A stretch of DNA of 64,000 nt from an uncultured Nitrososphaerales archaeon. Its GTDB lineage: Archaea > Thermoproteota > Nitrososphaeria > Nitrososphaerales > Nitrososphaeraceae. The stretch spans positions 59,921-123,920 of the forward strand of contig CAVQMO010000004.1 of NCBI GenBank assembly GCA_963713605.1, read 5' to 3'. The number at the start of each line of letters is the position of its first letter. The stretch's first letter is position 1. Of this stretch, positions 9,004 to 35,276 are shown piece by piece. Under the pieces are notes generated by a model. That model worked only from the letters and a program-made list of their open reading frames with translations, had not been told where the DNA came from and searched no databases. The position numbers and the translations under genes are program-made.

Positions 9004-9636
9004 TCAGTCAGTCAGGTAAAGATCTTTTTTTGTTCTGTATACGAATCTCATTACCAATGAGGCTGGAATAATGAGGGCCGGAATTCCCAAGGCAAGTTCA
9101 AGAGAATAGATTGAGGTTCCTAATGAAATGATAAAGACCGCCGGTGTTATAATAGTACGAAAATATGTTAACCTTATGATATCATTATCAATAGCCTTAT
9201 TAGGAGAAAATAGCTTACCTTTTAGCACGTGAGTCCATATACCAAATAGCATAAACCCAGCGAAAATTTGAACAACGCAGTAAAACCCGTAGGCATAGAT
9301 ATTGGTATCATATGCGTTTGTTAGTTTAAATGTAAAAGGTATCATAGTGATGAACATGAGGAGGAACATGTTTAGCCAAATGGTCAAATCTGTGGTTTTT
9401 GCTATCATACTAAATACTGACTGATATGTAATCCAGTACAATGCGATAATCACGAAACTGCTAATAAACAAGCTAATATTCAGTACCAAGTCATTAAGTT
9501 CATCTTCATTGAAGAAGCCGTCTTGTCCAACATGTGGAATTGCAAAATCTATGGCGAGTAACGTAATCGCTACTCCAAATACTGCATCAGTAAAGAATCT
9601 TACGTGAGACTTATTTATTCCGTATATATTTACCAA
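9004..9636 (-). CDS. TMEM175 (DUF1211) family K+ channel
   Basis: FFTDAVFGVAITLL, YW..Y, WLNMFLLMFITMIPFT; about six TM helices. Confidence 0.85.
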   Translation of the reverse strand: MVNIYGINKSHVRFFTDAVFGVAITLLAIDFAIPHVGQDGFFNEDELNDLVLNISLFISSFVIIALYWITYQSVFSMIAKTTDLTIWLNMFLLMFITMIPFTFKLTNAYDTNIYAYGFYCVVQIFAGFMLFGIWTHVLKGKLFSPNKAIDNDIIRLTYFRTIITPAVFIISLGTSIYSLELALGIPALIIPASLVMRFVYRTKKDLYLTD

Positions 9637-16849: not shown

Positions 16850-17221
16850 TCATATGATGATGTGATGTTTAATAGCGCAGTCTTTATGATAATAATGTCT
16901 TGGTCGACCGCTGGTTACAACGGCATGATCAGAATGTGCATGTGACAACAAAACTGCGTCTACATCGAGTTCTAATATCTCCCGTTCAGCCATCCTCATC
17001 AAATCATCCCTATAAAGTCCTTTAATATCTGGTAAAAGTCTCATAGTGAGAAAATCTTCTATTCCATTTGCTACTCGTGGATTGATATATTCCTCAAAGA
17101 ACTTGGCCCTTCTACTAAAGCCCTTACCAAAATCCAGAAAGACCCTAGTATCTTTATCCTCTAAAAGAATCTTGTTTCCTCCTATTTCATTTACTCCGCC
17201 GTAAAAGGTGAGACTTGTCAA
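16850..17221 (-). pseudogene. Truncated MBL-fold (RNase J/beta-CASP-like) metallo-hydrolase fused to an unrelated tail
   Basis: LTFYGGVNEIGGNKILLED...LDFG...LLSHAHSDH, then an abrupt switch to VVTSGRPRHYYHKDCA near 16921. Confidence 0.85.
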
Positions 17222-17720
17222 GAAATAGTATGAATCAGCGTAAATCATAAATGTGTTGGCACATTTCTGTTCTGCTCTATCATATCTATATTATGAGTTC
17301 TTTTATCGTCTGAGACAGACAAAATTTATGGTTCAAGCATAACATCACTATTGACGTCATAGAATGCATTTCAAATGCTGTTGAGGCATTAACATTTGCT
17401 TGTTCTCTTTGTGCTATGCTTCCAGTTGTATTAGTTTAGTTCATAAGATTAAATTCGTTTAGTCGTAATAGCACGACAAAATGAGTGTGAGATGTGTCAT
17501 TTTTTGAAAATCTGTTTTGATTAGTGTTTAGGTTCTAAACTCAATAGCAGAAGAAGATGAAATTCTTAGATTTCAAAAAAATATTAAGCCAATTTATAAT
17601 CGTATTCAATTTCACTGCATTCTCTTAGTTCCTATTCAAGTTATTTCCTTGTGCTTTTCCTTCCTGAATAGTATTAAGATTGGATTTGGCAGTTAGCAGT
17701 TGTACAACATTAGCTAATCC

Positions 17721-17726
17721 TTATAA
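17721..17726 (+). promoter_or_regulatory. TATA box of the nurA-herA operon (probably leaderless)
   Basis: TTATAA 24-29 nt upstream of ATG 17750. Confidence 0.55.
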
Positions 17727-17749: not shown

Positions 17750-19684
17750 ATGCCTCTACAGGATCCAGATAAGCTTATCAGAGTAGTTCAAGATTCTACA
17801 AGAAATCTTTTACATTCGTTTCGTGACAAGGCAAACGCTCTCCATGATCGTTCAGAAGATATTAGATTACTGATTAGAGAAGGATACAACAAGGAAATAG
17901 CGTATGGAACTGCACTAAATCTATTTGGCAAGGATACCACTTCGTTCCTGGCAATAGATGGAACCGAATCTCAAGACCAACAATTGGATATGATGATATT
18001 TTATGCAGGAGCCTTCGGCTATATAGGTAAGTTGCACTTTAATGATTCTACAAACGGCTGTAGATTTGATGAACCGCTTCCTATAGAAGGTAGTCTAGGT
18101 CTCTCTACAACAGTATCTATTCACGAACAAGACTCTGCAAGTGTAGCCGGTAAGCTAACTGAAGGAGGAGTTGAAGTTGAATCAGAACGATTACCCAGTA
18201 CACTTATGCAGTTATCAGAATACTATATGGCTGTTAAGACAATTCATGAGAATCCTAGTATACAAATAGTTATCCTCGACAGAACGCTTGCAGGAGATTT
18301 TGCTCATTTGATTTGGAGCGTCGCCAAAACTATGGAAGAGGATGGATCTTGTATACTCCAAGGAAAGGATACGAAGTATGGCAAGGTAACAGGCCTTGAT
18401 CTGGAGCTTACGAGAATGCTTCGTGCAAATGAAGACCTTAAAATACCATCTGCTAGGAGCCAATTGATCAAATATGCAGCGATAAATAAACTGCTGCAAA
18501 GCCAGGATCAAGAACTTGGAGAAGATAGTACGCTGGTATCAAGATCGCAAAGGGTTATGGATAAAAGAATATCGGATAAAGACCTACTAACGGCAATTGG
18601 GGCTGACAGAAATCGACTCGACAAACTACAGAAGGACATGGCAAAGCTCAATAAACGTTATTCTTTCCTTGATGGAGATCAGATGTATTCCCTGAAATCA
18701 CACATATCTGGATACTGGGAACGAGTCTTTTCGGCAGCAATGGAGGTTTGTGATCATATTTTCAATACTCCGGCTAACGAACATCCGCTAATACTCAGTG
18801 ATCCACAAAATATTGGGAATGCACGCTGGATCACTGTTAGTGATATTGATTATTTGATACTTGTTATGATTTATGCTTTGTTACACGCGGCATGGGAGAA
18901 AAATATTCTCGTAATAGGAATTATCAAAGATATATCAGCAGCAGAGATGACGAAGACAGTCATCCCTATACTTCAAAGCACTGGCATAATAGCTCTGAAA
19001 AGCAAATTTCCATCCCTAAATAGCGACAAATCTTTCTTGCAGACTGCTAGTATAGTCAATGCGAAAAGCATGGCTGCACCCTGGAGGACATTTGAATTTG
19101 ACGCTTGCTTTAGAACAGTTGTTCCTCCACATGTACATACTTTAGATAAGATATTTCCAGCTCAAGATATGCAGGACAATAAGATTGAGCATGAAGTAAA
19201 TGTCACTGGTGCTTTCAAAAATCTCATTTCAGAAGAGAGGATGTTTGTCAAATCATATATTCAACTCTGGTCTAGCAAAAATGATCCATCAGTACGAAGT
19301 CATGTATTCTCGTATGATAGACCATGCTATCCAAGATTTGACTTAAAGAAAGAATTAACTCTAATTCACAGAGACGGTAAGGTAATCGAGAGGATTGAAC
19401 CCATACTCCATTTCAAAGAAGACGCTGATCTATCCCACCTTGTAATGGACATCCTCTGTTCTATGTCTTCAGAGGTAATCCCAGAATGCTTAGGTCATAA
19501 TTACCCGTTATTCTTAGCAGACAAAAAGGCCAAGTCGGTACTAGAGGAAACTAGAAGAGCTTACTTATCTGCCGTATCTTTTGAAATGGCAAATAGTGAG
19601 TTCAACCAGCAAATACTATACGATACCCGGTTCAGAGAATATAGATCACAGGTGGAATCATTAAGGAGGAGCAAGAACATTTGA
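17750..19684 (+). CDS. nurA: Large NurA-family nuclease (644 aa)
   Basis: FLAIDGTE, VILDRTL, IGIIKD and C-terminal GHNYPLFLADKKAK match NurA RNase H-like motifs; overlaps herA. Confidence 0.8.
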   Translation: MPLQDPDKLIRVVQDSTRNLLHSFRDKANALHDRSEDIRLLIREGYNKEIAYGTALNLFGKDTTSFLAIDGTESQDQQLDMMIFYAGAFGYIGKLHFNDSTNGCRFDEPLPIEGSLGLSTTVSIHEQDSASVAGKLTEGGVEVESERLPSTLMQLSEYYMAVKTIHENPSIQIVILDRTLAGDFAHLIWSVAKTMEEDGSCILQGKDTKYGKVTGLDLELTRMLRANEDLKIPSARSQLIKYAAINKLLQSQDQELGEDSTLVSRSQRVMDKRISDKDLLTAIGADRNRLDKLQKDMAKLNKRYSFLDGDQMYSLKSHISGYWERVFSAAMEVCDHIFNTPANEHPLILSDPQNIGNARWITVSDIDYLILVMIYALLHAAWEKNILVIGIIKDISAAEMTKTVIPILQSTGIIALKSKFPSLNSDKSFLQTASIVNAKSMAAPWRTFEFDACFRTVVPPHVHTLDKIFPAQDMQDNKIEHEVNVTGAFKNLISEERMFVKSYIQLWSSKNDPSVRSHVFSYDRPCYPRFDLKKELTLIHRDGKVIERIEPILHFKEDADLSHLVMDILCSMSSEVIPECLGHNYPLFLADKKAKSVLEETRRAYLSAVSFEMANSEFNQQILYDTRFREYRSQVESLRRSKNI

Positions 19685-21544
19685 CTGAAACTGCAAGCGA
19701 AGGGAAAATGTCCAAAAAAATTGATGATCTATTTGATTCTCTTAATGGCAACTTTATTGCACGGTTAAGAGAAATATATTTGAACACTAGGATAACTGCA
19801 GATGGAAAAGCGACGATTACGTTTAGAACCGCAAGAATAGAGGCAGTATATTCACCAGATATCGTCAAGCAGATAGAGGCAGGTAGACTCATAGCAATTC
19901 CGAATGTTATGTCAGTTGGTACAAATAGCGTATATTCGATCTATGAGGTGGCCGATGTATATCCTATGCACTACAGTATGTTGACATTGGATAAGAGCCA
20001 ACCTGGAGCCATTCGTAATGAGTTTATGACATTAATCGAAAATGAGTGGCAAACTATCTCAAAAAGTACATGGATAGAGATTGTTGCAGCTCCCACCGGT
20101 TATATTGTCGCATTGGATAACGACATACCAAGTGAACCGAAATTCATCAGGAAGAGTAATGCCCCACTAATAGGATCTCGGGTATACATGCTAAACAAAG
20201 AAACTATTCAAAAATTTATTTGCTATACGCCTAAGGGAGAGGATCTATTAGAAAATTATGATATTGGTTATCTTCTGGGTGTCACAGAAGAACAAGTACC
20301 TTTTACAGTAAACATAGAAAAACTTCTGCATTATCACGTAGGCGTATTTGCATTTACAGGGTCTGGTAAGAGTAACCTTACATCACTTGTATTGAGAAAA
20401 TCAGTTAATTCACTTCCAAATATGAAATTTGTAATATTTGACATATCTTCAGAATACGGCATCAACATTCTCGATTTACTAAAATCTATTCCAAGTCGAG
20501 TCATATTTACAGATGAACTAAGAGGAAAGGATATTGCTGAAAAAGCTAAAGACTATCTTAGGAGGCATGTAATTCCGGAGACATTAGAGGATGTGAATGA
20601 TGCACTTCCTGCGTTAATTGAAGAAACGATCAGACAGAATAAGATAAAGAAAATTTTCATACAGTCAGAATCAGAACAGGGACTTCAGGGGATAACTAGT
20701 TACGGAGGTCTATTGGGAACCCTCGCTGATCTTGCAGGTGAGAAATATGGTGCAGCTGCTCAGAAAATCTTGATTCCAACCATTGCGGGAATGATAAGAA
20801 AGTTCATGGTTGACAATAAAATTGAGGATGAATCAACGGCGATTGGTAAGGAGATAATGCCTTTGATAGAGTCAGTAGAAAGTCTGTTGGCTGGCAGCTA
20901 AGCTACGACAGGATGCAGCATTAATTTCTATATTCAATAATCTAAAACTCGTGCTAGATAATCCTACTCAGAGGGATTTTGGTGACTATAATTCAACAAG
21001 ACTAGTAAGAGAAATCATGGATGATAGTAAAGACTCGCCAAGGATCTTTGTAATCAATCTTCCTGAAGCCGATACTGCGAGAACATTTTGCGCAGAGATC
21101 ATCAATAGAGTATTTAGATATAGAAAAAATAGCTTTACTCTTCAACCAAAGATTGCCTTTGTCTTTGATGAGGCACAAGAATTTATTCCATACGATAAGA
21201 AAAAAGAAGATGGAACAGAATATTCTAGCAGAGCTGTAGAAAAGTTACTCAGACATGGACGTAAGTACAACTTACATGGATGGATATCTACACAAAGAAT
21301 CGCTCATCTCAATACAAATGCACTTCAGCAGCTTCACAGTTATTTTGTAAGTACAATGCCAAGACCATATGACAGACAACTGATATCAGACACATTTGCA
21401 ATTGACGATGCATTCATGGATAGAACGTTGACATTTCAAAATGGAGACTGGCTTATGGCAAGCTTCAAAGCAACGAACACACAAAATGTTCCAGTCTTCT
21501 TTCATGCTATCAATAATGAAGGATATATAGTTGATAGGAAATGA
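19681..21544 (+). CDS. herA: HerA/FtsK-family ATPase, split by a single-base frameshift near 20893
   Basis: N-terminal HAS-barrel-like region; Walker [14 protein letters not shown]; Walker [16 protein letters not shown] arginine finger; STQR. Removing one G at about 20893 joins ESLLA to [24 protein letters not shown]. Confidence 0.9.
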
Positions 21545-21987
21545 GACTTACGAATGACGATCTCATAATGCCTGCTAGTACAAGGAAGATCTACATAACA
21601 CATTGTTCCGCCAAGAAAGATCCAGTTTTGATGGATAACAAGAATAGGGTTACCCCCGATAGGTTATACACAGCGACTCCTACTCAACGATTTATGAGTG
21701 AATGCAAGAACAAGGGAGTTAATTGGGCGATATTCTCTGACAAGTACGGTATATGGTTTTCAAATGATCTACATGAATGGTACGATAAGAATCCAAACAG
21801 GGTTACTACAGATGAATTTAACCAGCTAGTTCGTAAATTTGATAGGTCTCTCTCACGATTTGATGAAATTTATTTTTATCATAATCCAGGCAGGTTTCAC
21901 AAGCTATACAAGAGACTCTTAAAGAGCAGTGAATTGAGGGCTAAGATAAAGTTAGTTACTCATCTTAATGAAATCACCAATCAGTAA
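21541..21987 (+). CDS. DUF6884-like protein
   Basis: IYITHCSAKK...PDRLY...F...WAIFSDKYG...WYD pattern; ATGA overlap with herA stop. Confidence 0.65.
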   Translation: MRLTNDDLIMPASTRKIYITHCSAKKDPVLMDNKNRVTPDRLYTATPTQRFMSECKNKGVNWAIFSDKYGIWFSNDLHEWYDKNPNRVTTDEFNQLVRKFDRSLSRFDEIYFYHNPGRFHKLYKRLLKSSELRAKIKLVTHLNEITNQ

Positions 21988-22001
21988 GGGGTGCTTATGC
22001 T

Positions 22002-22664
22002 TTGTCCGAAACCTGTACATGGCTTCATGAACAACTAGAGCTTCTACCCATCTTCAAATATCCATTTGATTTAAAATTACTCCCAAATAATGGGATCTAT
22101 TTCTTTTGTGAGAAAGGTGAAAATTCAAACCACGGTAGTGGCATCCCCAAACCAAGGAAAAATACAGTTAGAACCGCAGGTGGGATAATGTTTGGAGTTG
22201 GATTTTTCGTTCTTGCCAGAACTGTCATTCATCCTAAACTGAAGAATTCTCTAAATATGACTGGAATCGGTTTAATACTTCTTTTGGGTGCAAATGCCTC
22301 ATCACTTATAATAATGACCCTCTACCCTCCATGGGGTATTATATCAACGACTTTTCTGATACCAGGTTCATACTTTCTAATAGTTGGTTTAGACTCTGCA
22401 ACGTTCTATCTGGCAACAGATTCCTCATTGAGAAGAGTAATAGCAAGGTCGCCTCAAAAGGAATATGATATCTTAAAGGCGATGGGTGCTTCCGCTTCGG
22501 AAGAAATTGTGATTAGCAAAGTAGCTAGCATCAGTAAGGAAGTATATTATGATATTCAATCAGAAAAAATCTTCGCTATCGCTTCTGAGCCTGCTGACGT
22601 CCAACAATATATTAATGAGGTATTTAGAGAAGTGTCGAATAGAGGCAGAGTGTCTGATGTTTAG
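22002..22664 (+). pseudogene. Chimeric ORF: GIY-YIG-like nuclease N-terminus fused to the C-terminus of a membrane protein
   Basis: LPNNGIYFFCEKGE...H...PKPR, then a junction near 22160 into TM helices (GGIMFGVGFFVLAR...PPWGII). Confidence 0.6.
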
Positions 22665-31309: not shown

Positions 31310-31942
31310 TCAGTCGGTCAGGTATAGATCTTTCTTTTTTCGATATATGAATCTCATCACCAATGAGGCAGGAATGATGAGGGCGGGGACTCCCAAGGCA
31401 AAATCAAGAGAATAAACCGAAATCCCTAATGAAATCATGAAGACCACGGGTATCACAGTAGTACGGAAATATGTCAAATATATTATATTTTTATCAATAG
31501 TCTTATTAGGAGATATTAGCTTAGCTTTCAGCGCGTGAGTCCATATGCCAAAGAGCATAAAACCAGCAAAAATTTGAACTACGCAGTAAAATCCATAGGC
31601 ATAGATATTGGTATCGTATATATTTGTTAGTTTAAATGTAAATGGTATCATTGTTATGAACATGAGAAAAATGATGTTTAGCCAAATCGCCAGATCTGTG
31701 GTCTTTGCCAACATGGCAGATATTGATTGATAAGTAATCCAGTACAATCCTATAATTATGAAAGTAATAACAAACAAGATAATATCAGATACCAACTCCT
31801 CAAGATCATCTTCATTGAAGAGGCCGTCTTCTCCTACCTGTGGAATTGCAAAATCTACAGCGAGTAATGTGATCGCGACTCCAACAACCGCGTCGGTAAA
31901 GAACCTCGCATGAGATTTATTTATTCCATACATATTTACCAA
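31310..31942 (-). CDS. TMEM175 (DUF1211) family K+ channel, paralog 2
   Basis: Same length (210 aa) as and colinear with 9004-9636. Confidence 0.85.
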   Translation of the reverse strand: MVNMYGINKSHARFFTDAVVGVAITLLAVDFAIPQVGEDGLFNEDDLEELVSDIILFVITFIIIGLYWITYQSISAMLAKTTDLAIWLNIIFLMFITMIPFTFKLTNIYDTNIYAYGFYCVVQIFAGFMLFGIWTHALKAKLISPNKTIDKNIIYLTYFRTTVIPVVFMISLGISVYSLDFALGVPALIIPASLVMRFIYRKKKDLYLTD

Positions 31943-34886: not shown

Positions 34887-35276
34887 TCATTCTGCTGAAG
34901 TATTATTCTCCCATAAACCAAAGGTGTTGTTTTCTGTATCAGAGCACACAGCAAGATAACCCATCTTTGGAACTGCCATTTTTGCCACCTTAACCTTACC
35001 CCCTAATTGTTCTACTTTGTTAGAATATTCATCAACAGATGAGACACCAATAGAATTCAGAATTCCTTGTTGTTCTGGGTTCATTCTCTTCATCAGCCCT
35101 CCATTAACAGCATTATTGCCTTCATGATCTTTTGTGGTTATTCCCCAGGCCTCCACACCTTCTGGTAGTTTTTCTGCTGGCACTTTCTCAATGTTCCATC
35201 CAAGCAAATCACTGTAGAACTTTTTTGACCTTTCTACATCATCTGTTGGTATTTCAAAATGTACTATTGTTGGCAT
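34887..35276 (-). CDS. VOC family protein, paralog 2
   Basis: 129 aa, colinear with 1320-1709. Confidence 0.93.
   Translation of the reverse strand: MPTIVHFEIPTDDVERSKKFYSDLLGWNIEKVPAEKLPEGVEAWGITTKDHEGNNAVNGGLMKRMNPEQQGILNSIGVSSVDEYSNKVEQLGGKVKVAKMAVPKMGYLAVCSDTENNTFGLWENNTSAE

Follow-up and report, generated by a model that had tools for sequence, protein, structure and literature searches.

A long archaeal NurA-HerA pair, probably independent of the truncated PDC-M57-like cassette that follows it

We analysed a 64,000-nucleotide stretch of DNA (the window; GenBank assembly GCA_963713605.1, contig CAVQMO010000004.1, positions 59,921 to 123,920) from an uncultured soil ammonia-oxidiser-type archaeon of the Nitrososphaeraceae, whose genome (G000) is 87% complete and carries the window on its contig C4. 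Four open reading frames (ORFs) on one strand follow one another closely here: a long nurA, a herA, a small DUF6884-like gene (gene 3) and the start of a GIY-YIG-like nuclease gene (gene 4). An earlier note on this DNA had read them as a single four-gene system, and the arrangement that it described, with a TTGA overlap at 19681-19684, an ATGA overlap at 21541-21544 and a 14-nt gap at 21988-22001, is present. The four-gene module was not borne out, however, and we favour, with confidence somewhat above even, the reading that two independent modules have recently come to lie side by side: a long NurA-HerA pair that would degrade DNA ends without depending on Mre11, and a dead cassette of the PDC-M57 kind.

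Genes 3 and 4 as a separate cassette

Genes 3 and 4 are absent from 182 other nurA-herA loci (duplicates included) and from all 94 of those with at least 600 bp behind herA, while elsewhere they stand as a pair of their own; the four-gene system is therefore not supported. The two genes are adjacent without nurA-herA in four genomes (G205, G213, G288, with two copies, and G373), the long nurA of the first three sitting on separate contigs, and a DUF6884-type gene precedes PDC-M57B in two further loci (L159, L165). Moreover, DNA similarity between the window and its relatives (85-94% identity; L030, L105, L104, L043, L044, L017, L018 and L012) ends at the herA stop (21530-21561), and on these counts and this break we reject conservation of the four genes as a unit. 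Public contigs carry different sequence after herA (run X8) and before gene 3 (run X5), and none among the matches listed spans the herA-gene 3 junction. The ATGA overlap is present but probably fortuitous, because the ATGA is herA's own Lys-stop end and is kept in relatives without gene 3, and because the nearest gene-3 relatives among the matches listed start later.

Gene 3 (21541..21987, + strand) encodes a DUF6884/YaaA-like, PDC-M57A-like protein with CSAKK and SDKYG motifs; the small gene of the earlier note was borne out, though its DUF6884 match (E 4.7e-4) lies under the cut-off. Its 486 homologues at E≤0.001 include WOR-3 and Thermoplasmata proteins, and the start is likely ATG 21568, because the nearest relatives among the matches listed (P0122 and P0125, 137 aa) begin at about window residue 12. 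DUF6884 is described as YaaA-related and as a predicted base flipper (PMC11701544).

Only the first ~50 codons of gene 4 (22002..22157, +) encode a PDC-M57B (GIY-YIG-like) nuclease, whose intact relatives have 238-247 aa. The PADLOC PDC-M57B model matches at E 7.8e-9 over model positions 1-44 of 211, an intact 241-aa relative aligns for 48 residues, and all likeness ends at ~48-52 codons; from there the frame runs on into an unrelated C-terminal fragment, which belongs to a membrane-protein family of many copies (22158..22664, +; ~17 other genome sites by tblastn). The claim of a GIY-YIG-like gene thus held for a nuclease-like start but not for a whole gene. This truncation is real, since contigs from two studies span the nuclease/membrane-protein junction without differences. 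The GIY-YIG-like label comes from what we take to be a GIY-YIG-type motif in gene 4 and from the PF26468 label of P0138, not from a fold test, and a PDB sequence search with the intact gene-4 relative found no relative.

The cassette resembles PDC-M57 in its order, with a PDC-M57B nuclease-like gene (E 1e-54 for an intact relative) directly behind a DUF6884-type gene, and differs from it in that the A-like gene is divergent here and the B gene is cut short. The PDC-M57A model leaves window gene 3 unmatched and matches 2/13 relatives weakly (E 0.011 and 7e-4); gene 3 and the DUF6884-type gene before PDC-M57B in L159 share 24% identity (E 1e-5). PDC systems are computational candidates from a guilt-by-embedding set (bioRxiv 10.1101/2024.01.29.577857); the two-gene make-up of PDC-M57 is taken from PADLOC model names, M57 being unnamed in the main text of that preprint. 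We propose that this pair was inserted behind herA in the window's lineage, where it would now be dead because most of the nuclease has been lost. In one locus (L158:1081-2220) the two genes form a natural DUF6884-PDC-M57B fusion, a single 379-aa ORF.

The long NurA

The first gene (17750..19684, +) encodes the 644-aa NurA-like nuclease that the earlier note had named: Pfam NurA matches it at E 1.9e-4 (21.5 bits vs a cut-off of 21), and with its AlphaFold2 model (pLDDT 90.4) all 10 Foldseek matches at E≤0.001 were NurA chains (E 1e-9 to 3e-7). NCBIfam gave no match for the long NurA, gene 3 or gene 4, and an ESM Atlas search returned only NurA-like archaeal clusters without names. The model, Foldseek and alignment together place an RNase H-type core at D70/E157/D177/D591, of which the first three residues occur in 131/131 and the last in 130/131 full-length aligned long NurAs. 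In a profile alignment with Pyrococcus furiosus NurA (3tai) the D70 and D177 motifs align, and Asp591 sits opposite the C-terminal His of 3tai, which we take to be an active-site residue; the canonical His is absent here. Because three acidic residues are invariant and the fourth, aligned with this His, is nearly so, the family has a predicted D-E-D-D RNase H-type site.

Residues 226-345, modelled separately (pLDDT 84), contain a predicted winged-helix insertion (18425..18784, +; residues ~236-320 of the segment). Most of the best VIA-align rows (Z 6.4-7.6) have titles of winged-helix proteins (ScpB, Z-beta, BirA, Fur, MarR), Pfam gave scattered weak helix-turn-helix matches (HTH_24 in 4/96), and Foldseek found no match for the insertion at E≤0.001. 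Since no row reached a Z of 8 and Foldseek stayed silent at that threshold, we infer the winged-helix domain and state it no more firmly. Searches of the open-licence literature and bioRxiv turned up no account of a winged-helix NurA family of ~600 aa, and the excerpts of PMC9905601, PMC5797428, PMC7554672, PMC12988326 and PMC11705971 make no mention of it; the long NurA-HerA family is apparently undescribed so far.

The HerA partner and its split frame

The second gene (19681..21544, +) encodes a HerA ATPase (DUF87 E 3e-15) with Walker A AFTGSGKS and Walker B AFVFDEAQ, motifs matched in 47/49 long HerAs. As a HerA gene it stood; a single surplus base at ~20893, however, breaks its reading frame into parts of 406 and 197 aa (19681-20901 and 20951-21544), where intact relatives have 601-635 aa. 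Against six relatives the window carries one surplus base at 20891-20895, and this base is missing from public contigs in three of four runs (X1, X5, X6), the fourth (X8) being without coverage there. We consider the surplus base probably an assembly error, because the X1 contig is otherwise the same as the window over 293 nt; X1 may be the source sample, and in X6 the base is left out in 14.4 of 19.6 depth only. A 69-nt relic on contig C12 (L005:6506-6574, C12:~232500), 93% identical to window herA 21164-21232, is the trace of a lost second copy.

In a quick IQ-TREE phylogeny of 64 HerAs a single clade (SH-aLRT 93) unites the 49 long-type proteins and is separate from the short, canonical-type and Mre11-linked types; the window's HerA accordingly does not branch with the canonical type. 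Three subclades of mixed taxonomy make up the long clade, and we therefore read these sequences as suggesting that the pair underwent transfer or replacement. In genus g23, long nurA-herA pairs of two deeply divergent subfamilies (L173/L174 in G022 and G172 vs L176/L177 in G166 and G069) lie in a shared chromosomal neighbourhood of thermosome, MFS/EamA, CoA-binding protein and protease genes, a pattern that looks like whole-pair allele replacement; among the listed genomes of family f10, both subfamilies are clearly present together only in G283 (8% contamination).

Linkage, distribution and relation to known HerA-NurA systems

In 79/88 loci, the window included, herA directly follows nurA, and the loci without it are mostly contig ends or truncated nurA genes. 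The earlier note had seen no mre11 or rad50 in the window; they are indeed absent there but lie on the same contig (C4:46226-50116; 438 and 856 aa), 27.5 kb before nurA and without adjacent herA-nurA. Mre11 and Rad50 queries from G000 found no match in 201 long-NurA loci, duplicates and short loci counted (L048/L050 carry a split SMC-like ATPase and no Mre11). Nor is this the genome's sole pair: C1 (116391-118936; L004:9392-11937) carries, amid housekeeping genes, a short pair whose nurA encodes 350 aa and whose herA encodes 498 aa. The short-pair HerA (Walker B FAEEAH) occurs in 224/401 Nitrososphaerales genomes, with 2/112 in family f13 and 0/12 in genus g4, and this pair is often beside a P-II gene, with no adjacent mre11 in 8/8 loci viewed. 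A second pair in the genome, a separate HerA clade and long-NurA loci free of Mre11/Rad50 matches all bear out the earlier description of the window's pair as non-canonical.

The nurA profile matches 123/401 Nitrososphaerales genomes, fragments included (f10, 80/97; the window's family, 17/111; f13, 2/112), and 51/251 genomes of the phylum; named members come from Culexarchaeum, a Thermoplasmataceae and a Heimdallarchaeota metagenome-assembled genome (MAG). Genomes G011, G121 and G281 enter the tallies only. In published MAGs, NurA-HerA-Mre11 is reported for NS-alpha, and for NS-delta a lack of HerA/NurA annotation is reported (PMC13707971).

The long pair shares with the archaeal HerA-NurA complexes (Thermococcus kodakarensis 9x1m/9x1l, P. 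furiosus 3tai/3taz, Sulfolobus 2ygk) the NurA fold and acidic residues, an adjacent HerA with Walker A/B motifs, and translational coupling of nurA and herA. It differs in length (solved NurA chains have 319-432 residues, the long family about 600-645 aa), in the predicted winged-helix insertion, in the Asp for the C-terminal His of 3tai and in its separate HerA clade; unlike them it lacks linkage to mre11-rad50 and coexists with other nurA-herA pairs. Several pairs per genome are known: Pyrobaculum has paralogous and CRISPR-linked ones (PMC3396285), and 'Cas HerA/NurA' pairs of type III have been described (PMC3973734). The latter are akin to the window's pair in that the best PADLOC match of both HerA halves is 'Type III coevolved' (E 1.4e-14 and 3.5e-20), but PADLOC does not match its NurA, and when neighbour proteins from partly overlapping loci were scanned with PADLOC in sets of 115, 110 and 95 (CRISPR arrays not searched), no csm6 or type I/III cas genes appeared and the only matches were one Cas12f/TnpB-like and one DinG-like. 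With the anti-phage systems Sir2-HerA and DUF4297-HerA the pair has in common a HerA motor and an enzymatic effector in a two-gene unit, whereas its effector is NurA, not Sir2 or DUF4297; the HerA_antiphage model scores 39 bits with the N-terminal HerA fragment (cut-off 800).

Possible functions of the long pair

If the pair works as the solved HerA-NurA complexes do, a free double-stranded DNA end would be bound by a HerA hexamer, which, driven by ATP, would push the DNA into a NurA dimer for degradation; the inserted winged-helix domain, as modelled, probably adds a DNA-binding or docking surface. The two-gene unit would be an old archaeal paralogue untied to mre11-rad50. Its place in Nitrososphaeraceae is accessory, with frequent decay and frequent restriction-type neighbours, and its likeliest job there would be to destroy or trim linear ends (restriction-cut or incoming DNA) without licensing by Mre11-Rad50.

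The antiviral or anti-plasmid role put forward in the earlier note is suggested only, through the neighbours of the pair. Loci on the ammonia-oxidiser side have a variable context, with type I/II restriction-modification, McrB-like, Dnd, DrmD-like, ShosTA or HEC-05 within 4-5 kb, and restriction/Dnd/BREX-type neighbours occur at 9/20 of them vs 3/29 other-lineage loci (Fisher p 0.008); the G000 baseline, estimated roughly at 11 sites, is 3%. Left out of this tally were L019, L031, L032, L033/034/045, L053, L104, L109, L276 and further loci whose flank is shorter than ~2 kb; L021 and L022, whose nurA is truncated (L022 with an adjacent methylase); the near-duplicates L240, L241, L247 and L258; and L055-L108, which are basal metagenome loci without a label, among them L060 and L103 with methylases. 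A defence role in ammonia oxidisers is plausible. A very divergent long nurA-herA pair (L270, genome G155) lies inside a defence island with ShosTA, a cytosine methylase and type II restriction-modification.

Several points weigh against an end degrader of this kind. Counting PDC matches lifts the comparison group to 7/29, the neighbour labels were set by hand (L275 by eye) on loci of which some metagenome ones lack a taxon and kin are non-independent, and the baseline queries were drawn from the tallied loci themselves. Housekeeping genes (thermosome, EF-2, gatD/E, ribosomal proteins) surround the pair in f10 and in most other lineages, a setting unlike the behaviour of defence genes. No long NurA of the 80 scanned fits a PADLOC NurA model, and PADLOC gave no match for that of the window; the winged-helix Z-scores peak at 7.6, below 8; and the HerA tree was made by a quick method that gave long-branch warnings.

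A serious rival, which we nevertheless judge unlikely, is that the long pair is a housekeeping paralogue for repair or replication forks that resects ends for the genome's own Mre11-Rad50, the restriction neighbours marking no more than shared insertion hotspots. This reading draws on the near-universal syntenic presence of the pair in f10, on the NCBI title 'DNA double-strand break repair nuclease NurA' of one long-family member, and on the nearby G000 Mre11, which has no HerA-NurA beside it and shares 55% identity with an Mre11 encoded directly after NurA-HerA in G054. It also draws on the HerA searches of G000 and 13 congeners, where canonical-type and Mre11-linked HerA were each found in 0/14 (incomplete MAGs, no internal positive control). 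Against it, the window's genus has a nurA match in 7/14 genomes, full-length only in G000 and G009 and fragmentary in the five others, so that the pair is dispensable there; the near-universal short pair is present besides, and none of the long-NurA loci has an Mre11/Rad50 match.

At the other extreme, and about as doubtful, the long pair might be an ancient, dedicated innate-immunity machine of archaea, a RecBCD-like destroyer of foreign or restriction-cut ends whose winged helix reads sequence, modification or DNA shape and so spares self. Its divergent subfamilies would swap at one chromosomal site in an arms race, and in ammonia oxidisers it would accompany cassettes for restriction-modification, Dnd and PDC and act downstream of them as a degrader.

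Quite improbable, in our judgement, is a decaying pseudo-operon without present function in this strain. A truncated metallo-hydrolase, a split herA and a truncated nuclease do lie within 5.8 kb, fragmentary copies are many in the genus, and the mixed depth in X6 fits such decay; yet nurA is intact with all catalytic residues kept, and the surplus base is missing from the otherwise identical 293-nt contig and likewise from contigs of two further studies. Least probable of all is a lineage-specific four-gene system, with DUF6884 recognising bases that are modified or damaged and passing the DNA to NurA-HerA and the GIY-YIG nuclease: the single strand, the tight spacing, the predicted base flipping (PMC11701544) and four proteins that all act on nucleic acids would suit it, but it is largely refuted by the absence from all 94 loci, the divergence of close relatives at the herA stop, the truncated nuclease and the contigs that differ on either side of the junction.

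We see no case for pursuing the four genes as a system. The juxtaposition that we favour instead brings out a widespread NurA-HerA family, with a predicted additional domain and a changed active site, that Pfam, NCBIfam and PADLOC mostly miss and that lives alongside other HerA-NurA pairs without Mre11-Rad50; claims about HerA/NurA presence in ammonia-oxidising archaea that are based on annotation can thus overlook entire paralogue types. T. kodakarensis HerA-NurA degrades both strands, an antiviral role has been proposed for it, and resection vs antiviral degradation is now debated for the archaeal enzymes (PMC12977600). A dispensable paralogue independent of Mre11 would make this question testable with no essential gene touched.

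Other features of the window

A putative TATA-like TTATAA (17721-17726, +), read from sequence only, lies 24 nt upstream of the nurA ATG; a sigma-70 promoter scan, whose model is unsuited to archaea, found 14 sites vs 19.4 expected, which is chance level. A ~90-nt element at 17576-17664, also upstream of nurA, has copies on C10, on C12 and beside a gene-3 fragment in L149.

Divergent from nurA lies the remnant of a metallo-beta-lactamase/RNase J-like gene (16850..17248, - strand; Pfam Lactamase_B), with ~103 homologous codons of the 474 aa encoded when whole; it is 85% identical to residues 4-106 of the L030 protein and has further relatives in L016, L040, L171 and L172. Several Nitrososphaeraceae loci have the 474-aa gene, often broken, no more than 5 kb from the long pair, and it also lies near a gene-3 fragment in L150; it is possibly a loose partner of the long pair. 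The truncated ORF ends in a short repeat at 16857-16931 (copies on C10, C12, C2 and C3), which may be the cause of its break.

Two duplications lie farther out in the window: membrane-protein genes at 9004-9636 and 31310-31942, ~22 kb apart, and a pair at 1320-1709 and 34887-35276, ~33 kb apart, whose products are presumably glyoxalase-like proteins.

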